Assembly: GCA_963775805.1 (NCBI GenBank) | Contig: CAVZKG010000005.1 | Coordinates: 337,234 to 401,233, forward strand | Source of the DNA: an uncultured Verrucomicrobiae bacterium | Lineage (GTDB): Bacteria > Verrucomicrobiota > Verrucomicrobiia > Chthoniobacterales > JAFAMB01 | DNA length: 64,000 nucleotides | Direction of reading: 5' to 3' | In this document: piece after piece, positions 2,440 through 10,420 of the stretch | Layout: every line of letters starts with the position of its first letter | Position numbering within the stretch: position 1 is the stretch's first letter | Made by a program: the position numbers and the translations under genes | Notes under the pieces: model-generated | What the model was told of the DNA's origin: nothing | Databases searched by the model: none | What the model saw: only the letters and a program-made list of their open reading frames with translations

Positions 2440-2905
2440 GCGAAAACGCCAACATCACGATTCCTCCCAGAATAAAGAGCATTCCCACGAGTCGCCCGAT
2501 CGGAATTATCTCGTGTAGGACGAGCAAACAGGCCAAAGGAACCAGCAGATGCACCGAGGACGACAAGCCATAGGCCAGGTGAAGCGGCAGTCGCGGAAGC
2601 GCCGCGAGCCATAAGGATAGACTGCCGATGTACGCGACGATGCCCAAAATCACCCATCCGTTGAAGAGGGTCGAGAGGAATGAGATCGACCCCGGGAAAA
2701 TCACGGTGGGCGGCTGGGTTGCACCAATTTTGAGCAGCAACTCCGCAAACGTGGACAAAATCGCGTTGAGAAGGACCAAACCGATCGGAAACCATTGCAC
2801 TGCAATAAAGCGTCGCCCCTGTAGCCCGGTCGGGGTACGCTCGAGAATGTTAGTTGCAGATTTGCCGCTCTTCGCCATTATCCGGTTTGCATTTTGCTGA
2901 CGCAC
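2432..2905 (-). CDS. Half-size EamA/DMT-type transporter subunit
   Basis: 157 aa with 4 predicted TM helices (FAELLLKIGA..., WVILGIVAYIGSLSLWLAAL...). Translationally coupled to 2071..2439. Alternative start at 2878. Confidence 0.6.
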   Translation of the reverse strand: MRQQNANRIMAKSGKSATNILERTPTGLQGRRFIAVQWFPIGLVLLNAILSTFAELLLKIGATQPPTVIFPGSISFLSTLFNGWVILGIVAYIGSLSLWLAALPRLPLHLAYGLSSSVHLLVPLACLLVLHEIIPIGRLVGMLFILGGIVMLAFSHE

Positions 2906-2962
2906 CGCTTCAGGCCGCAGTGCTTGATTACTGTCAGCGGACAGCTAAATGATTTTTACGAC

Positions 2963-4207
2963 ATGCAGCCTTCAGGTTCTTCAATAACAGGGACAGATAC
3001 CCAAACCAAGCCTGGCCTCTCGGCGTCAGACGCTTCTTCTGTTCATATCTGTATTGAAACCACGTTTGGGTCAGCCGTCGTAGCCGATTCTGTTCCTAGT
3101 GAAGATTACAACGTTTGGGTTGCCGGATTGGACCAGTCTCCTCTGGACCACCGGTATTATGAGATTGTACACGAATCGCTAAAGGATCAATTTGCGCATT
3201 ATTATCTATTGCTGAAAGACGATACTGGGAGGACCCGGGCTATACAACCGTTCCTGATCGTAAGTCAAGATCTCGCAACAGGGATGCCTCCAGTGGTTCG
3301 TGGATTGCTGGCCCGGATCCGAAGCCATTTTCCGGGATTTCTCAAATTGCGGATGCTCATGGTCGGGTCTTCCGCAGGGGAAGGGGATATCGTTTTGGAC
3401 CTGAGAAGCCGGGATATTGCATGGACTATCGACGCGTTACAGAAGAGCCTGGTGGCATCCGCACGCCGTCTAAAGGCAATGCTGATCGTATTTAAGGACT
3501 ATCCGAAATCGTATCGTGAATCGCTCGATCGATTGCGACAATTCGGTTATACGCGTGTGCCCAGCATGCCGGCAACAAGACTGGAGCTTGATTTTAACGA
3601 TTTCGACGATTTTCTGAAATCACGCATCAGCTACACGATGCGGAAAAACTTACGGCGGAAATTTCGCAAAACGGAGGGCGAACATCAAACTGAGTTCGAG
3701 GTCCTCAACGACATAACCCCCTTCGTCGACGAGATTCACCCGCTCTATCGGCAGACTTTGGGCCGATCGGAGCTCAAGTTCGAAGAATTGACCAAATCAT
3801 ACTGGTGCAATCTCGGGCGTCGAATGAACGACCGCGCACGGTTTTTTATTTGGCGTCAAGGGGGCAAGATCGTGGCATTTGCGTCGACCATTGTGCACAA
3901 GAACGTACTCCGGGATAACTATATCGGACTCGATTACTCAGTTGCGCTCGAGTATCACCTTTATTTTGTCACGCTGAGAGACACGATTGTATGGGCTCTC
4001 AAAAACGGTATTAAGACCTATCACAGTGCACCGTTGAACTACGATCCAAAGTATCATTTTCGAATGGACCTGGAACCACTTGATCTCTATGTGCGTGCGC
4101 CAAACAGGTTTTTGAATCCTCTCTTTAAGCGAATCCTGCCATTGCTGGAGCCGACTCGGTACGACCCGGTTGTTCGAAAGTTCTCGAATGCAAATGAACT
4201 ATGGTAA
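2963..4207 (+). CDS. GNAT-fold acyltransferase, FemAB/BioF2-like (Acetyltransf_6-type)
   Basis: About 414 aa from the ATG at 2963; the ORF-track start at 2894 is TTG and would overlap the divergent gene. The C-terminal half (FIWRQGGKIVAFASTIVHKNVLRDNYIGLDY...YHLYFVTLRDTIVWALKNGIKTYH) resembles the FemAB-like GNAT core. Confidence 0.5.
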   Translation: MQPSGSSITGTDTQTKPGLSASDASSVHICIETTFGSAVVADSVPSEDYNVWVAGLDQSPLDHRYYEIVHESLKDQFAHYYLLLKDDTGRTRAIQPFLIVSQDLATGMPPVVRGLLARIRSHFPGFLKLRMLMVGSSAGEGDIVLDLRSRDIAWTIDALQKSLVASARRLKAMLIVFKDYPKSYRESLDRLRQFGYTRVPSMPATRLELDFNDFDDFLKSRISYTMRKNLRRKFRKTEGEHQTEFEVLNDITPFVDEIHPLYRQTLGRSELKFEELTKSYWCNLGRRMNDRARFFIWRQGGKIVAFASTIVHKNVLRDNYIGLDYSVALEYHLYFVTLRDTIVWALKNGIKTYHSAPLNYDPKYHFRMDLEPLDLYVRAPNRFLNPLFKRILPLLEPTRYDPVVRKFSNANELW

Positions 4208-5090
4208 GGGATCCAATCCGCAGACGAAGACGTCAGAAACCATCCGGCTTCGACTGGATGACGCCTGGGATTTCAAGTTCTCGCCTTCATTCAAAGCCCC
4301 CTTGGTTGTGGATGCATCATCCTTTGGCCCCTCGTTGCGGTTTATAACAAAGAAACGTTCGATTGAATCGTTTTTTGGCGAGTTCCGGGACAAATTTTGT
4401 CCATTTATCATGTCTGGGTCAGGGGACTTTCATCATCTGACTCCTCTGTTTGTCCGGCAAATCAAGGAGAACTTCGCGATCGTATCGTTTGACAATCATC
4501 CTGACTGGGATGTGCGTCCACCCTACTGGTCGTGCGGCGCGTGGGTGAATCGAGCCCTTGAAAATCCGCTGATCCAAAAAGTCGCAGTTTGGGGTTGTGG
4601 CAGCTTCGAGTGCACTTTCCCATGGCGCCTGCTCGGAAATCGACTGGCTTGCCGCTCAGATCGCCTATGGATTGCTCCATGGCAAAGCGAAGGGAAGGAT
4701 TACCCATCGTGGTTGCATCCGGTCTTATCGGGGAATTGGCAGACTCATTTCACAAGATTTGTCGAATCAATCCGAAGTCTCCCTGTTTACGTCACTGTGG
4801 ACCTTGATTGCCTCAGCGAAGAGGAATCAGTCACAAATTGGGAGAATGGGCGGTATGCGGTCTCGGATATTGTATGGGCGTTGACGCTTCTTAGGCAAAA
4901 TGTGCGAATTATCGGCGGGGATCTCTGCGGAGCGCTATCGACATCCCGGTACGGATCGCGTTTTCAATCTGTTGCAGGACGTTTTGATCATCCCCGTCCG
5001 CGCGCTGTATCGGAAGAGGCGCGTCGCACAATTAACATGCGAGCGCTGGAGTCGATCTGGCCCTGTCTAATTGGGGAGTCGCTGTCGTAA
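4188..5090 (+). CDS. Arginase/ureohydrolase-fold family protein
   Basis: Motifs in the canonical order of the binuclear-metal arginase fold: SGDFHHLT (GGDHS-like), FDNHPDWD (DAHxD-like), VTVDLDCLS (SxDxD-like), GGDLCG. The start overlaps the upstream stop. Confidence 0.55.
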   Translation: MQMNYGKGSNPQTKTSETIRLRLDDAWDFKFSPSFKAPLVVDASSFGPSLRFITKKRSIESFFGEFRDKFCPFIMSGSGDFHHLTPLFVRQIKENFAIVSFDNHPDWDVRPPYWSCGAWVNRALENPLIQKVAVWGCGSFECTFPWRLLGNRLACRSDRLWIAPWQSEGKDYPSWLHPVLSGNWQTHFTRFVESIRSLPVYVTVDLDCLSEEESVTNWENGRYAVSDIVWALTLLRQNVRIIGGDLCGALSTSRYGSRFQSVAGRFDHPRPRAVSEEARRTINMRALESIWPCLIGESLS

Positions 5091-5326
5091 TGCCGGAATC
5101 GCTTCGACGATGTTTCGATAACGCATTCTGAAGCCGTTTTCAGAGGCCAAAGCCGTCAAGAAGGGAGACCTGAATTTTATTTTGGAATAACAGGTCCGGG
5201 CCTGCATCTACCTATATGCAAACGGGCGCACAGTTAAGAGACCAGACGTTTGATCGTCTTCTTAAAACAGCTGTGCTGTTGCGAAGGTGACCAGACACCA
5301 ACTATAAAAACTAGAAAGAGTTAAAG

Positions 5327-5599
5327 ATGATTAGACCATCCAAAGCAGTGATTGCAGGCGCGGCGGTCGCCGGCCTTATGACAGGTTCCTTTGCGGTTCG
5401 TGCTTATGCCGCGAGTACTACCACCTCCCACGCTGGTGTAGCGCTGCAGACCCTGGCAGACACTGAGAAAGGCAAACATGGGTGTAAAGGGCAGAACGAA
5501 TGCAAAGGTCAAGGCGGTTGCAAGACAAGCGATGCCGGTTGCAAAGGCAAAAACTCTTGCAAAGGCAAAGGAGGCTGCGCGACCAATAAGGGTGCCTAG
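5327..5599 (+). CDS. bufA: Bufferin-type RiPP precursor: Sec signal peptide plus 6-Cys Lys/Gly-rich core
   Basis: 90 aa. N-terminal signal (MIRPSKAVIAGAAVAGLMTGSFAVRAYA|AS). Core is GCKGQNECKGQGGCKTSDAGCKGKNSCKGKGGC, with six Cys spaced C-x5-C-x5-C-x6-C-x5-C-x5-C. Lies directly upstream of DUF692/DUF2063/DoxX genes. Confidence 0.8.
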   Translation: MIRPSKAVIAGAAVAGLMTGSFAVRAYAASTTTSHAGVALQTLADTEKGKHGCKGQNECKGQGGCKTSDAGCKGKNSCKGKGGCATNKGA

Positions 5600-5747
5600 T
5601 CCGATAGCCCCCTTGAAGTCTGTTTGGCCGGCTTTCTCGCTGGCCATCGACAATCAACTCGGGGAGGGTGTTCTCGCGCGGCGATATGTGCCGGCCCCAT
5701 TCCTCCTCGAAAGCCGAAAGCCAGTTTGTTAGAAAGTTATTAGGAAT

Positions 5748-6599
5748 ATGCCCGCTAACGCTTTTAACGGATACACGGAATATGGCATAGGCATTGGTTT
5801 GCGAGTGCCGCATTATCGCCACATTCTCGCGAAGAAGCCTGTTGTTGATTGGTTCGAGATCATCTCCGAGAATTTCATGGTCGATGGTGGTCGACCGCTC
5901 GAAGTGCTCGACACGATCCTCGAACAGTATCGAGTGGTCCAGCACGGGGTAGCAATCTACTTCGGTTCAGCTGACAAGTTTGACCGCGAGCATCTCAAGC
6001 GGCTCAAACGACTCGTTAAATACACGAAGACCCCGTGGCTTTCTGACCATCTTTGCTGGGGCAGTGTCGACGGCCGTTACACGCATGACCTGTTGCCAAT
6101 GCCGTACACCTTTTCAGTGGCGCACCACACCGCGCAGAAAATCAAAGAGGCGCGTGATTTTCTTGAAGTCCCCATCTGCGTCGAGAACGTGAGCAGCTAC
6201 GCCGAATATCATGCTTCGGAAATGACCGAATGGGAGTTTCTCAGTGAGGTGGTTGAACAGGCGGATTGCGGCATTCTACTGGACGTGAATAACATTTACG
6301 TTTCGTCGCAAAATCACAGCTTCGATCCGTACGATTATCTAAATAACATTCCCCATCAACGGGTGGGCCAGATCCATATTGCTGGTCATTCCAAATTCGA
6401 AAAGTATATACTCGATACGCATGATCACCCGGTGCTTGATCCGGTCTGGAAGATGTATGCCCATGCGATGAAACAGGTAGGAAATACTGCCACGCTGCTC
6501 GAGTGGGATGATCGCATCCCGTCGTTTGACGAGGTTCATAATGAAGCGCTCAAAGCCAATCAATTCCGGGACAAGCAGCTCATTGCGGCCGCCAAATAA
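5748..6599 (+). CDS. bufB: DUF692 multinuclear non-heme iron oxidative (MNIO) enzyme, MbnB/BufB-like
   Basis: 283 aa with typical DUF692 blocks: GIGLRVPHY, DWFEIISENF, VVQHGV, PWLSDHLCW, ENVSSY, LLDVNNIYV, IHIAGH, DTHDHPV, TLLEWD. Confidence 0.9.
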   Translation: MPANAFNGYTEYGIGIGLRVPHYRHILAKKPVVDWFEIISENFMVDGGRPLEVLDTILEQYRVVQHGVAIYFGSADKFDREHLKRLKRLVKYTKTPWLSDHLCWGSVDGRYTHDLLPMPYTFSVAHHTAQKIKEARDFLEVPICVENVSSYAEYHASEMTEWEFLSEVVEQADCGILLDVNNIYVSSQNHSFDPYDYLNNIPHQRVGQIHIAGHSKFEKYILDTHDHPVLDPVWKMYAHAMKQVGNTATLLEWDDRIPSFDEVHNEALKANQFRDKQLIAAAK

Positions 6600-7503
6600 A
6601 ATCAGTTCACACGCTGAGCTGAAAGAGTTGCAGCGCGTGATGGTTCAAGCGCTGTTTCGTCCCCTTACACCTCAATGGGGAATGCAGAAGCGGTGGACCG
6701 ACGGCACTCCAATGATATCGGTCGCTTCGGAGTTTATTAAGCCGAATGACCGGCTGACTTCGTTCGAGCGTCTTGAAATCTACAACCGTCAATACTGGTA
6801 TCGAGTTCTTGACTGTCTCTACGACGACTACCCGGGGCTGCGCGCAATCGTCGGGGAGCGGAAGTTTATGAAGCTCGCGAAAGCGTATCTGACACGTCAT
6901 CCGTCGGAATCGTACACGCTTCGCAATCTCGGAAATCGGCTCGAACAATTTCTGAGGGACGAGCCTGACTGGTGTGCTCCCAGAGAAGAACTGGCCATCG
7001 ACATGGTTCGATTTGAGTGGGCGCAGGTGGTCGCGTTTGACGGACCTTCTAAGGAGCCGCTCACCCCGGATGATATCCTCGATACCCCTCCATCCAAGTT
7101 AAAGCTTGCCCTTCAACCGTATATTTCGCTGTTGGAATTGAATTTTGCGGTGGACGATTTTCTGATCGCCGTTAAGAAACAGGAAACAGACGGACTTCGT
7201 GGCGAAGCGAGTAACGCGAAGAATGCTGCACCAAAAGCGAGCGGGCGCCGGAAACGGGTTCGGTTCCCGAAGCGGGAGAATATTTATCTCGCCGTTCACC
7301 GGCACGACAACGTCCTCTACTACAAACGCCTCGAACAAGAGGAATATGCCATCTTGAAGTCACTCGACCAGGGAGTGACGGTGGAAGACGCGTGCCTCGA
7401 AGCGGTCACCTTAAGTAAAAGAACAAACGTCGACTGGCCTGCGGAAATCAAGCAATGGTTTGATACCTGGTCCACGCTTGGCTGGTTCTGTCACCGATCA
7501 TGA
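6541..7503 (+). CDS. bufC: DUF2063 partner protein of the MNIO enzyme (MbnC/BufC-like)
   Basis: The N-terminal ELKELQRVMVQALF block is typical of DUF2063. Follows and overlaps the DUF692 gene. Start uncertain (ATG 6541 or 6508). Confidence 0.75.
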   Translation: MKRSKPINSGTSSSLRPPNKISSHAELKELQRVMVQALFRPLTPQWGMQKRWTDGTPMISVASEFIKPNDRLTSFERLEIYNRQYWYRVLDCLYDDYPGLRAIVGERKFMKLAKAYLTRHPSESYTLRNLGNRLEQFLRDEPDWCAPREELAIDMVRFEWAQVVAFDGPSKEPLTPDDILDTPPSKLKLALQPYISLLELNFAVDDFLIAVKKQETDGLRGEASNAKNAAPKASGRRKRVRFPKRENIYLAVHRHDNVLYYKRLEQEEYAILKSLDQGVTVEDACLEAVTLSKRTNVDWPAEIKQWFDTWSTLGWFCHRS

Positions 7504-8018
7504 GTGGAATACTAAATCTGGTCCGCCGCGCTTACAGGCTCCTCGTAGCGTTCGCCAATCTGCTGCGATCCCCGTTTTTACTGGCGCTGCGCGTTTATTT
7601 CTTCTGGCAACTCTTTCAGACCGGCGAGGGCAAACTCTCGAACATTCAAAGGGTGATAGGGTTCTTCAAAAGTCTCGGAATTCCGGCTCCTCATATCAAT
7701 GCGTACTTTGTTAGTTCTCTGGAATGCTTCGGCGGTTTGCTTTTGATCGTCGGTCTAGCCTCACGTCCGATTGCGCTGATGGTCACCATTTCAATGTGTG
7801 TAGCGTATGTCAGTGCCGATCTGGAGGCCGTCGCCAGCATATTCAGCGATCCGGACAAGTTCGTAAAAGCGGATCCGTTCCCATTCCTGATGGCGGCTTT
7901 GATTGTCCTGGTTTTCGGGCCCGGATTGATCTCGATCGACGCGTTTCTACAGCGCGTGTTTGGAGAGAAACGAGAATCAGAGCTCGATTACTCGACGAAC
8001 GCGTTTTCTAAGAAATAG
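7500..8018 (+). CDS. bufD: DoxX family membrane protein
   Basis: 172 aa with 4 TM helices and the DoxX-like segment SSLECFGGLLLIVGLASRPIALMV. An ATGA start/stop overlap with the DUF2063 gene suggests translational coupling. Confidence 0.8.
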   Translation: MSGILNLVRRAYRLLVAFANLLRSPFLLALRVYFFWQLFQTGEGKLSNIQRVIGFFKSLGIPAPHINAYFVSSLECFGGLLLIVGLASRPIALMVTISMCVAYVSADLEAVASIFSDPDKFVKADPFPFLMAALIVLVFGPGLISIDAFLQRVFGEKRESELDYSTNAFSKK

Positions 8019-8032
8019 CCGGGAGATTCGCA

Positions 8033-9787
8033 GTGTATCGCTCTTTATGGGTTCTATTTGCGGCGGCACTGCTCTCGTTTGAAAGTGCCACTGCGGCAAG
8101 TGACGCGATTGTCTGGCAGCCCTGGTCCAATTCGATCTTTGACCAGGCCAAACGAGAGGGGCGTTTCGTTCTACTCGACCTCGGGACAAGCTGGTGTCAC
8201 TGGTGCCATGTCATGGAGGATGTCACCTACCGGGATCCGGCTGTGACTCGTTTAATCGGGCAACGCTATCTCGCTGTCCGGGTCGACGCCGATTCGCGCC
8301 CTGATTTATCGAATCGATACGAGGACTACGGCTGGCCGGCGACCGTCGTTTTTAATAACGACGGCAGCGAGATCGTAAAACGGCGCGGTTACCTTCCTCC
8401 CGAGCAAATGGCCTCGATGTTGCAGGCTATCATCGACGATCCAACGCCCGGTCCTTCTGTCGTCGCAGAAACGCCTCTCGTTCCAAGCGGTGCGGATACT
8501 ATCAATCCGGGGAAGAGGAACGAATTACGCCAGACTTTGGTTGAAAGTTATGACCATATCAACCTGGGCTGGGGTAGCGGTCAAAAATTCCTCGATTGGG
8601 ATACGATCGAGTATTGCATCACCCAGACCTTGCGTGGTGATCGGGCGCTGGAACGAATGGCGCGTGAAACGCTCGGTGCGCAACTTAATCTGCTCGATCC
8701 AGCATGGGGTGGAGTCTACCAGTATTCGACCGACGGAGATTGGGTCCATCCGCACTTTGAAAAGATTGTGCAGATGCAGGCTGAAAACCTTCGAATCTAC
8801 GCACTTGCATACGCGTTATGGCATGATGAAACCTATTTGGAAGCAGCAAACCGAATTCGTGATTATCTGCGGGAGTTTCTAACCTCTCCCGATGGTGCAT
8901 TTTACACAAGCCAGGATGCAGACCTCGTCGACGGCGAGCATGCGGCGGGTTACTTCAAGCTCAGCGATAGCCAACGACGAACGCAGGGCATCCCGCGGGT
9001 CGACACTCATGTTTACGCTCGCGAAAACGGTTGGGTGATTAATGCCCTGACGGTGCTCTACTCGGTTTCCGCTCAGAAGGCAGCGCTTGCGGACGCGATC
9101 CGATCGGCCCTTTGGATTTGCGATCATCGAGCGCTCCCCGGTGGCGGGTTCAGGCACGATGAAACAGACGATTCCGGCCCTTATCTCGGCGACACGCTAT
9201 CGATGGGACGAGCCTTTCTGGCGTTATACAGCTGCACAGGGGATCGTTCCTGGCTCCAAAAGGCGATGGGCTCGGTCGACTACATTTCGAAGAACTTTTC
9301 AACCGATGTTGGATTTGTCACGAGTCCGAACATTGGCGGGATCAAATCGAAGCCGCAGCTGGATGAAAACGTGAATCTGGCCAGACTGGCTTGTCTATTA
9401 TGGCACTACACCGGGGAGACCGGTTACAGGACCATCGCCGAAAGAGCAATGCGCTACGTCAACAACCCAGCCGCAATCGAACATCGAGGGTACCAGGTGG
9501 CTGGCGTACTTCTGGCCGCCGACGAACTGGAGTTGTCGCCGCCACATATCACCGTCGTCGGGCATAAAGATGATCCGAAGGCCGAGGAACTCTTCCGAGC
9601 GGCTATTCGCCAACCGATCACATTCAAACGCATCGAATGGCTTGATGACCGTGAAGGGGCGCTCCCAAACCCAGACGTTGCATATCCGACCTTGCCAAAG
9701 GCCGCCGCTTTTTTCTGCACGGACCAAGCCTGTTCTGCCCCTGTTTTTGTCGTCGCGGCATTGGTCGCCGAGATTTCGAAGCGTTGA
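8033..9787 (+). CDS. Secreted thioredoxin-domain protein, DUF255/YyaL-like (thioredoxin fold plus alpha/alpha-toroid)
   Basis: GTG start. Signal peptide MYRSLWVLFAAALLSFESATAASD. DUF255 hallmark LLDLGTSWCHWCHVMEDVTY. The long C-terminal part resembles six-hairpin glycosidase-like/N-acylglucosamine 2-epimerase-like folds. Confidence 0.8.
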   Translation: MYRSLWVLFAAALLSFESATAASDAIVWQPWSNSIFDQAKREGRFVLLDLGTSWCHWCHVMEDVTYRDPAVTRLIGQRYLAVRVDADSRPDLSNRYEDYGWPATVVFNNDGSEIVKRRGYLPPEQMASMLQAIIDDPTPGPSVVAETPLVPSGADTINPGKRNELRQTLVESYDHINLGWGSGQKFLDWDTIEYCITQTLRGDRALERMARETLGAQLNLLDPAWGGVYQYSTDGDWVHPHFEKIVQMQAENLRIYALAYALWHDETYLEAANRIRDYLREFLTSPDGAFYTSQDADLVDGEHAAGYFKLSDSQRRTQGIPRVDTHVYARENGWVINALTVLYSVSAQKAALADAIRSALWICDHRALPGGGFRHDETDDSGPYLGDTLSMGRAFLALYSCTGDRSWLQKAMGSVDYISKNFSTDVGFVTSPNIGGIKSKPQLDENVNLARLACLLWHYTGETGYRTIAERAMRYVNNPAAIEHRGYQVAGVLLAADELELSPPHITVVGHKDDPKAEELFRAAIRQPITFKRIEWLDDREGALPNPDVAYPTLPKAAAFFCTDQACSAPVFVVAALVAEISKR

Positions 9788-9999
9788 GCGGCGAAGCGGT
9801 GTCGGCTATCGTCGCCGTCATGAATGATGAGAGAGATTTGAAGTCATACGAAGAGCGGGCGTGGCAATATTTTCTGCAATTGCAACCGACCATCACCGAT
9901 GTCAACGCGGCGGCTGAGTTGGCCTTTCGAGCCGTGGATGCCTTCAACAAAGGGCTCCAGAAGAGGAGATCTCAGGAATCCCGAGAAGTTGGCTCCTGA
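9784..9999 (+). CDS. Small hypothetical ORF (71 aa), doubtful
   Basis: TTG-initiated ORF overlapping the DUF255 stop and running into the tRNA-Asn 3' end. No recognisable motif. Confidence 0.2.
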   Translation: MSGEAVSAIVAVMNDERDLKSYEERAWQYFLQLQPTITDVNAAAELAFRAVDAFNKGLQKRRSQESREVGS

Positions 10000-10064
10000 G
10001 GTAGGATTTGAACCTACGACCAATCGGTTAACAGCCGACCGCTCTACCGCTGAGCTACTCAGGA
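9990..10064 (-). tRNA. tRNA-Asn (anticodon GTT), CCA encoded
   Basis: Manual cloverleaf on the minus strand: TCCTGAG-TA-GCTC-AGCGGTA-GAGC-G-GTCGG-CTGTTAA-CCGAT-TGGTC-GTAGG-TTCAAAT-CCTAC-CTCAGGA-G-CCA (75 nt). Confidence 0.92.
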
Positions 10065-10117
10065 GTCTGGTGGGCCAAGACCTTAATCCCGGCCGCGGTT
10101 GATTCAAGCGAAAATTA

Positions 10118-10420
10118 CTACAGCATTCCAGGAGGCAGTCCAAGTCCGGATGTCAGACGACCCACTTCACTTTGTGCCAGGGCTTTGCCCTTTTCGATCC
10201 CCTGTTTGACCACGCTTAGAATCAGGTCTTCCAGCATTTCTGTGTCTTCCGGATCAACGACTTCCTTGGCGATCTTGATCGAGAGGATGTCGCCGAGACC
10301 ATTCGCAACGGCCGTAATTTTCCCGCCACCGACACTGACCTCAACGGTCCTCGTTGCCAACGCCTCGTTCAGCTGCTCTTGCATCTTTGCAGCCTGCTTC
10401 ATCATTTTCTGGATATTCAT
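10118..10420 (-). CDS. ybaB: Nucleoid-associated protein YbaB/EbfC
   Basis: 100 aa. MNIQKMMKQAAKMQEQL...VEVSVGGGKITAVANG is typical of YbaB. Lies downstream of dnaX, the conserved synteny. Confidence 0.9.
   Translation of the reverse strand: MNIQKMMKQAAKMQEQLNEALATRTVEVSVGGGKITAVANGLGDILSIKIAKEVVDPEDTEMLEDLILSVVKQGIEKGKALAQSEVGRLTSGLGLPPGML

Follow-up and report, generated by a model that had tools for sequence, protein, structure and literature searches.

Bufferins form a very large class, defined recently, of RiPPs (peptides made by the ribosome and modified after translation) that bind copper in the periplasm. The closest characterized system to the one described here is the Buf2 cluster of Caulobacter vibrioides, encoded by CCNA_02999-03001 (Leprevost et al. 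2024, PMC11626156; Antoine et al. 2025, PMC12452194). In Caulobacter, bufABC is both required and enough for thiooxazoles to form and for protection against copper, and DoxX is dispensable for the modification (PMC11626156). Buf2 loses 4 Da for each of its four central Cys and shows a band at 305 nm (PMC11626156, PMC12452194), while its first and last Cys (C1 and C6) stay unmodified and probably form a disulfide (PMC11626156). Thiooxazoles have been proven by nuclear magnetic resonance (NMR) for Buf1 and for EGKCG peptides, the evidence for Buf2 being only the mass shift and the 305 nm band (PMC11626156, PMC12452194), and the 5-thiooxazole structure has been independently confirmed. Here, we analyze positions 5327-8018 of a 64-kb stretch of DNA, hereafter the window, from a soil bacterium of the Chthoniobacterales (Verrucomicrobiota). 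Judged from its sequence, this region is very probably a bufferin operon of the Buf2 type (BUF_6/12Cys, or "Cys-Lys captophorin").

Gene clusters with a similar layout are already on record. In Opitutus terrae, Candidatus Koribacter versatilis and Acidobacterium, a Buf_6-12Cys precursor accompanied by DUF692, DUF2063 and DoxX proteins has been listed (PMC12452194, Table S2), and the MNIO-PME1 cluster taxonomy of Gadgil et al. 2026 (PMC13097082) contains 33 Verrucomicrobiota entries, where MNIO stands for multinuclear non-heme iron oxidative enzyme. Since the tabulated clusters consist of the same four genes as the window locus, with consecutive accession numbers, the four-gene cluster is already catalogued and not new in kind; Table S2, however, gives counts only, without chemistry, subtype or accessory genes. 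The layout precursor-MNIO-DUF2063-DoxX is also that of the Buf1/gig systems (gig of Cupriavidus, buf1ABCD of Caulobacter), which yield a periplasmic copper-binding thiooxazole peptide, the product type that we infer for the window. The EGKCG or Lys-Cys captophorins (oxazolin HvfA, fontiphorin, gonophorin, bulbicupramide) resemble the locus in having a Cys peptide that is repeat-like, rich in Gly and Lys and probably without structure, an MNIO with a PME1 partner (plus DoxX/HvfX), and a 5-thiooxazole metallophore as product, which here would be expected by analogy.

The original prediction for this DNA, made from the letters alone, had described a complete four-gene operon ending at 8018. The four open reading frames (ORFs) are indeed present, co-directional on the + strand and with neighbours overlapping or abutting, so that this part of the description stands; a probable fifth gene at 8033-9787 had been overlooked. 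The features of the four-gene core are as follows:

5327-5599, + strand: bufA, 90-aa Buf2-type precursor (ORF; NCBIfam BufA2, E=3.6e-9).
5327-5410, + strand: predicted Sec signal peptide of BufA, residues 1-28, with cleavage after AYA as judged from sequence.
5748-6599, + strand: bufB, MNIO (DUF692) of the bufferin type, 283 aa (Pfam PF05114; NCBIfam MNIO_BufB).
6541-7503 (alternative starts 6508 and 6640), + strand: bufC, partner protein of the DUF2063/PME1 type with a C-terminal domain resembling a RiPP recognition element (RRE; Pfam DUF2063).
7500-8018, + strand: doxX (bufD), DoxX-family integral membrane protein, 172 aa (Pfam DoxX).

The scores of the profile hidden Markov models (HMMs) for the MNIO, the DUF2063 protein and DoxX are far beyond chance. 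BufB, which had been recognized as a DUF692 protein by its motifs, reaches 352.4 bits with the Pfam model MbnB_TglH_ChrH (PF05114; E=1.8e-105, cutoff 25) and 343.8 bits with the NCBIfam equivalog MNIO_BufB, above the curated cutoff of 310. Aligned with PDB 3BWW (164 bits) and TglH (78 bits), it keeps the motifs HG, SDH, VEN, LDVNN, IHIAGH, DTHD and LLEWD, which we take to carry the iron ligands, going by the MbnB and TglH structures. In the last of these motifs, LLEWDD, the proposed catalytic Asp is followed by a second Asp; in the BufB set, drawn from 55 related loci and the window, 51 sequences have this LLEWDD. An Asp after the catalytic one is typical of MNIOs acting on Cys-Lys substrates, whereas the MNIOs of Lys-Cys (EGKCG) peptides have a Phe there (Gadgil et al. 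2026, PMC13097082), as in LLERDF of 3BWW. Both marks of a Cys-Lys captophorin system, multiple Cys-Lys in the precursor and Asp instead of Phe in the MNIO, are found in the window.

The closest homologues of BufA, BufB and BufC come from metagenome-assembled genomes of Chthoniobacterales/Verrucomicrobiota, in agreement with the non-proteobacterial host that had been suspected. BufB is 66-96% identical to the window protein across related loci (tblastn) and 66-98% within its own clade, against 45-50% for the MNIOs associated with proteobacterial Buf2, so that, going by these identities, the BufB loci form a tight clade that crosses phyla; its 90%-identity cluster alone counts 1988 members. BufC, in turn, is ~40-55% identical to the window protein in most loci (38-85% overall), and DoxX ~40-60% (39-71% overall). 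Between Verrucomicrobiota, Acidobacteriota, Eremiobacterota and Planctomycetota (compared with L020-L089), the figure for BufB is 66-86%, with BufC and DoxX at ~40-55%. Such identity of BufB across phyla, about 78%, points to very strong constraint, to horizontal spread, or to both.

The partner protein BufC matches Pfam DUF2063 with 58.6 bits (cutoff 27.2), in support of its earlier assignment. Its AlphaFold2 model has a pLDDT of 68.7, exceeding 80 over much of the C-terminal half. Foldseek ranks NGO1945 (3DEE; E=3e-5, target-normalised TM 0.69) and TglI (8HCI_A) highest for this model, the RRE proteins of lasso peptides being non-significant, with E near 1. Three starts come into question, giving 331 aa from 6508 (the first in-frame ATG), 320 aa from 6541 and 287 aa from 6640. 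The most likely one is 6541, because most database gene calls of relatives use it (320 aa) and because the residues I21, S23, L27 and Q31, encoded between the bufB stop and ATG 6640, are conserved in an alignment (A2). The Pfam DUF2063 match also begins upstream of ATG 6640, the start chosen by some gene callers, including this contig's own call (P0265, 287 aa). The 59-nt overlap between bufB and bufC (6541/6599) that had been described thus holds if bufC starts at ATG 6541, and would be different with either alternative. The ATGA overlap at 7500-7503, where the ATG of doxX overlaps the bufC stop, is present as described, and DoxX itself is recognized by Pfam with 64.4 bits (cutoff 23.6). The Caulobacter buf2 cluster, for its part, has no doxX.

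The precursor gene lies 148 nt upstream of bufB. Its product reads MIRPSKAVIAGAAVAGLMTGSFAVRAYA followed by ASTTTSHAGVALQTLADTEKGKHGCKGQNECKGQGGCKTSDAGCKGKNSCKGKGGCATNKGA, with the predicted cleavage point between the two parts and six Cys in all. The description of a Sec-type signal peptide and a Cys/Lys/Gly-rich core proved apt: the basic residues R3 and K6 are followed by an Ala/Gly-rich hydrophobic stretch and by an AxA-type cleavage site (AYA, then AS). The exported peptide would be 62 aa long, with the core [CKGQNECKGQGGC]-KTSDAG-[CKGKNSCKGKGGC], that is, two CKGxNxCKGxGGC half-repeats without a C-terminal tail, and five of the six Cys of BufA precede a Lys. With Caulobacter Buf2 the locus has in common the Sec-signal precursor, ~60 mature residues, six conserved Cys, the order bufABC and the Cys-Lys dyads, even though the hosts differ (here Verrucomicrobiota). 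With the canonical Buf2 precursors of Legionella, Thiothrix and Asticcacaulis, whose loci were reached via BufB and whose precursors were then translated, BufA shares the C1-C5 spacing of 5, 5, 6 and 5 and the central Cys-Lys dyads. The proposal of a 6-Cys member like BUF_6/12Cys is supported by this C1-C5 spacing, with C6 placed differently, by a sub-cutoff match to the BufA2 model and by the existence of 6- and 12-Cys relatives, a 12-Cys relative being what the description of the Buf2 family requires.

Homologues of this BufA form 4818 clusters when grouped at 90% identity, with 1313 representatives when grouped at 50%, and the family has forms with 6, 8 and 12 Cys. In an alignment of the window precursor with 76 diverse homologues, the six Cys are invariant in 77/77 sequences, and most of the core CKGxNxCKGxGGC-KxxDxG-CKGKNSCKGKGGC is invariant or nearly so. 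The 8-Cys variants carry an extra ...CKTSDSSCKGKNGC, and the 12-Cys variants are tandem domains. The signal peptide, too, has a hydrophobic core that is unusually conserved across phyla, with A13 invariant and A12, G16 and G20 at >=90%, in sequences down to 47% identity, and within Verrucomicrobiota, so is an AGVxLQTxAD segment past the cleavage site; these two elements may be recognition elements for BufC. An antisense ORF of 110 aa covers bufA (5321-5653, - strand) and has similar counterparts in 45 related loci; these ORFs are a by-product of repetitive Gly/Lys/Cys coding, and gene callers based on ORF length can prefer them. The folding of the 148-nt spacer between bufA and bufB is no better than that of shuffled sequences (z=-1.27), and an attenuator there was discarded as unsupported.

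Several observations weigh against the assignment of the locus to the Buf2 type. When the HMM check proposed in the original prediction was carried out, the DUF692, DUF2063 and DoxX proteins came out above their cutoffs, but the precursor scored 36.7 bits with NCBIfam NF050166 (BufA2), below the curated cutoff of 60. This model matched all 77 scanned sequences and all of them below the cutoff, none coming near 60 bits and the best E-value being 9.7e-13; in the window BufA, the C-terminal 12 positions of the profile are unaligned. Canonical Buf2 precursors have C6 ~12 residues past C5, in a C-terminal tail (...KGxG[WVF]...C..GG..), whereas the window BufA lacks this tail and has its C6 5 residues past C5, inside the second CKGKGGC half-repeat. 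Unlike Buf1 and Buf2, for which the literature describes small folded proteins (PMC11626156), the AlphaFold2 model of BufA, built on the 77-sequence alignment, has a mean pLDDT of 53, no secondary structure and no confident fold. BufC scores 38 bits with NCBIfam HvfC, the cutoff of which is 142, but this is to be expected of a model built for a different subfamily. No metal-responsive regulator or copper-resistance gene adjoins the operon in the 64-kb window. Finally, the thiooxazole and copper chemistry is attributed to this locus by analogy, as is everything beyond the gene families.

Membership in the other known families was considered and rejected. Buf1 has a DUF2282 precursor with 4 Cys, and the window BufA has six Cys and no Pfam match at E<=1, DUF2282 included; moreover, Buf1 clusters usually contain an ECF (extracytoplasmic function) sigma factor and NrsF, none of which is adjacent in the window. 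The EGKCG/oxazolin family is set apart by its Lys-Cys-Gly motif, as opposed to Cys-Lys-Gly in the window, which has no EGKCG motif and falls below the cutoffs of the corresponding models (HvfB 246.9 against 360, HvfC 38 against 142, and 57.7 against 80 for the HvfX-family model of NCBIfam with DoxX). As for methanobactins, the MbnB model gives 41.5 bits, below 325, and the partner is a DUF2063 protein and not MbnC.

The co-directional unit probably extends beyond doxX to 9787, since a further gene begins 14 nt past the doxX stop with a GGGAG before its start. Thus, in addition to doxX, the window carries a second gene with no counterpart in the Caulobacter buf2 cluster:

8033-9787, + strand: secreted DUF255 (Thioredox_DsbH) thioredoxin-like protein, 584 aa, probable fifth gene of the operon (Pfam PF03190).
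L011, L012, L015, L022, L024, L032, L050, L058, L070, L080 and L082: DUF255-linked loci, 11/80.

This protein scores 90.6 bits with Pfam PF03190 and 91 bits with PDB 7TKV. It starts with a GTG and has a signal-like N-terminus, a CxxC motif (WCHWCHVM) and a C-terminal domain like an alpha/alpha-barrel. Clustering of ORFs showed that DUF255 homologues adjoin this type of cluster in 11 of 80 species-level loci, spanning Verrucomicrobiota, Acidobacteriota and Planctomycetota. The gene lies downstream of doxX in Chthoniobacterales, Lacunisphaera and Tepidisphaerales, and upstream of bufA in two Acidobacteriota; L022 has the order bufA-bufB-bufC-doxX-DUF255-bufA, with two identical copies of bufA. 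Chance alone would account for ~0.2 loci in 80 with a DUF255 gene no more than 7 kb away, an estimate that assumes about one such gene per ~5-Mb genome and treats the 80 loci without phylogenetic correction. The WCHWCHVM motif is kept in 11/11 linked copies, and at least nine have a hydrophobic N-terminal segment. Because of this linkage, the conserved CxxC and the hydrophobic N-termini, we count the DUF255 gene as a probable accessory gene of the cluster, and propose that its product could serve the bufferin as a thiol/disulfide or redox partner in the periplasm.

That the DUF255 gene is a mere neighbour with no functional tie, and the system a plain four-gene cluster, seems to us rather unlikely, even though there are arguments for it. 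About 69 of the 80 related loci do without DUF255, no mention of a link between DUF255 or thioredoxins and bufferin clusters was found in the MNIO landscape papers searched, and in the window's own clade the entire neighbourhood is syntenic, unrelated flanking genes included. Against this, the gene lies next to the cluster and in the same direction in three phyla and in three arrangements, in one of which (L022) it stands between doxX and a second bufA, and there are 11 linked loci where ~0.2 would be expected. The gap of just 14 nt after doxX and the signal-like N-termini of the linked copies, which match a periplasmic product, also speak for a functional association. A search of the literature on DUF255, YyaL and SPATA20 yielded nothing relevant to bacteria or metals.

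By analogy with the characterized bufferins, a Buf2-type operon of this kind could work as follows. The bufA gene, a conserved ORF, would give the 90-aa precursor, whose Cys would be oxidized in the cytoplasm by BufB, which its DUF2063/RRE partner BufC would keep on the substrate, in an O2-driven four-electron oxidation that turns Cys into 5-thiooxazole with a loss of 4 Da each. If the pattern is that of Caulobacter Buf2, modification would affect the four central Cys, and a disulfide would link C1 with C6, for a total of -18 Da; alternatively, five or six Cys might be modified, since C1 shares the Cys-Lys context of the central ones. The peptide, predicted to be largely unstructured and rich in Gly, Lys and Cys, would then be exported by Sec and cut after AYA by signal peptidase, and the resulting 62-aa periplasmic peptide would chelate excess copper through its thiooxazoles. 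The inner-membrane DoxX and the secreted DUF255 protein would be, more speculatively, probable accessory redox components.

It is highly improbable, in our view, that BufB makes another modification (e.g., an oxazolone-thioamide), or that it modifies some of the Cys only, with the peptide acting mainly as an unmodified thiolate cluster of the metallothionein kind. The great diversity of MNIO reactions, Buf2 modifications unsolved by NMR, and a precursor below the BufA2 threshold with a different C-terminal architecture would leave room for this. Nevertheless, the close MNIO relatives that act on bufferins and EGKCG peptides have all converged on 5-thiooxazole after structural revisions, and the window BufB passes the BufB cutoff and has an active-site dyad of the Cys-Lys type.

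We also regard it as improbable, to a lesser degree, that the same machinery and the same thiooxazoles serve a role other than copper buffering, be it the handling of a soft metal other than copper (Hg, Au, Ag, Zn, Cd) or a periplasmic defence against thiol or oxidative stress, where DoxX and the DUF255 protein would form a redox relay. The presence of these two putative redox accessory genes in the operon fits such a role, as do the lack of flanking copper-resistance genes or metal regulators in the window and a Lys/Gly-rich, apparently disordered core unlike that of characterized Buf2; MerC-Buf2 fusions, in addition, suggest a mercury role for some bufferins (PMC12452194). Against this, the characterized members (Buf1, Buf2, oxazolin, fontiphorin and bulbicupramide) are all copper-linked, and BufB passes the curated BufB equivalog. 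Copper binding by a thiooxazole peptide of the Buf2 type is the function that we favour for the locus.

To follow the distribution of this type of system, the precursor alignment was searched against a single genome for each species. The same precursor subtype is matched by at least 578 stretches in these species-representative genomes, and the best 80 loci were used for the genomic context. These 80 loci come from Verrucomicrobiota (Chthoniobacterales, Opitutales, Methylacidiphilales, Prosthecobacter), Acidobacteriota (Edaphobacter, Silvibacterium, Terracidiphilus, Bryobacterales, Blastocatellia), Eremiobacterota and Planctomycetota, and most of them have the order bufA-bufB-bufC-doxX in tblastn searches with the window proteins. 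The Opitutus, Korobacter and Acidobacterium loci of the scan have the same CKGxNxCKGxGGC-type precursor. Among cultured bacteria, the subtype is carried by Prosthecobacter fluviatilis, Edaphobacter aggregans and Silvibacterium bohemicum, which makes the system experimentally tractable. A tblastn search of plasmids with the precursor gave no match, the low-complexity filter probably masking its repeat-like core.

Other genes recur around these clusters. A secreted HExxH (HEMIH) protein of ~300-370 aa with no Pfam match is encoded beside the cluster in 22/80 loci (L015:5854-6756, L024:1515-2432, L027:9647-10666, L032:9612-10718 and 18 more); Acidobacteriota have it downstream of doxX, and some Chthoniobacterales upstream of bufA. 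No homologue of the HExxH, TM170 or NDH2-like accessory proteins seen in related loci was found in the window. ECF sigma factors (Sigma70_r2/r4) lie near the cluster in 20 loci, mostly of Acidobacteriota (e.g., L023, L029, L039 and L053); the sole and weak sigma-factor match of the window is ~34 kb from the operon. In the published survey, sigma and anti-sigma genes are given for Buf1 clusters and not for Buf2 clusters. Solitary precursors with no MNIO gene within 7-10 kb also occur, L001 (10001-10300), L014, L025 and L066 among them, the L001 assembly containing many fragmented genes; precursors without an MNIO neighbour have likewise been noted by Antoine et al. (PMC12452194).

Upstream of bufA, comparison with close relatives revealed two conserved elements:

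5184-5210, + strand: candidate promoter, GGAATAAC (5184-5191), an 11-nt spacer and TGCATCTA (5203-5210), identified by conservation.
5203-5326, + strand: conserved bufA leader with a predicted hairpin at 5248-5296, identified by conservation and RNAalifold.

GGAATAAC and TGCATCTA are conserved in 22 distinct relatives, and the 11 nt between them vary in sequence and are constant in length. From its sequence, GGAATAAC-N11-TGCATCTA looks like an ECF-sigma-type promoter followed by a leader of ~110 nt; a generic sigma-70 scan found nothing at 5184-5210. The ~125 nt before bufA (5203-5326) are nearly invariant in 22 close relatives whose flanking proteins are merely 66-80% identical, and the upstream region is better conserved than the adjoining coding genes. 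The hairpin is predicted as GUUUG.AUCGUCUUC ... ACAGC-UGU-GCUGU ... GAAGGUGA.CCAGAC, with 26 pairs in RNAalifold, one of which (1/26) changes on both sides in a covariation check of 18 non-identical sequences, some of them from a metagenome scan. Covariation thus lends the hairpin weak support, and the upstream element is a lead and not a result. The leader gave no match in Rfam; it is confined to the close Chthoniobacterales clade and absent from more distant loci.

The two genes preceding this region (2894-5090), one encoding a FemAB-like/GNAT acetyltransferase and the other a 306-aa protein with a weak arginase-family match, are probably unrelated to the operon, because their synteny with it is limited to the closest relatives. 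On the other side, a tRNA gene (9993-10064, - strand; Rfam RF00005, 72.8 bits) lies directly past the operon and sets the unit's downstream boundary, with ybaB and dnaX following on the minus strand. This tRNA was the sole match of an Rfam scan at permissive threshold, and generic sigma-70 and terminator scans of 4800-10200 stayed at or below the shuffle expectation.

With regard to the literature searched, what is new in this locus and its relatives is the tail-less, apparently disordered core of two half-repeats below the NCBI BufA2 cutoff, the linkage to DUF255 genes and, in other loci, to HExxH genes, and the conserved leader specific to its clade. A further-reaching idea, tentative and on the whole unlikely, is that the CKGxNxCKGxGGC subtype constitutes a distinct subclass of disordered bufferins, with up to six thiooxazoles and a dedicated secreted DUF255 oxidoreductase.

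The BufB clade is very abundant in soil metagenomes, and its simplified, repeat-like precursor is missed by current NCBI equivalog models. The locus could help to settle how many Cys are modified by a Buf2-type MNIO, and in what manner, and the DUF255 and HExxH genes are cheap, testable leads to accessory functions, reported as essentially absent in published surveys. If the subtype were a distinct subclass, the system would be abundant in soil, and the widespread bacterial DUF255/YyaL (SPATA20-like) family would gain its first defined role, in which it assists a RiPP metallophore as redox partner in the periplasm.

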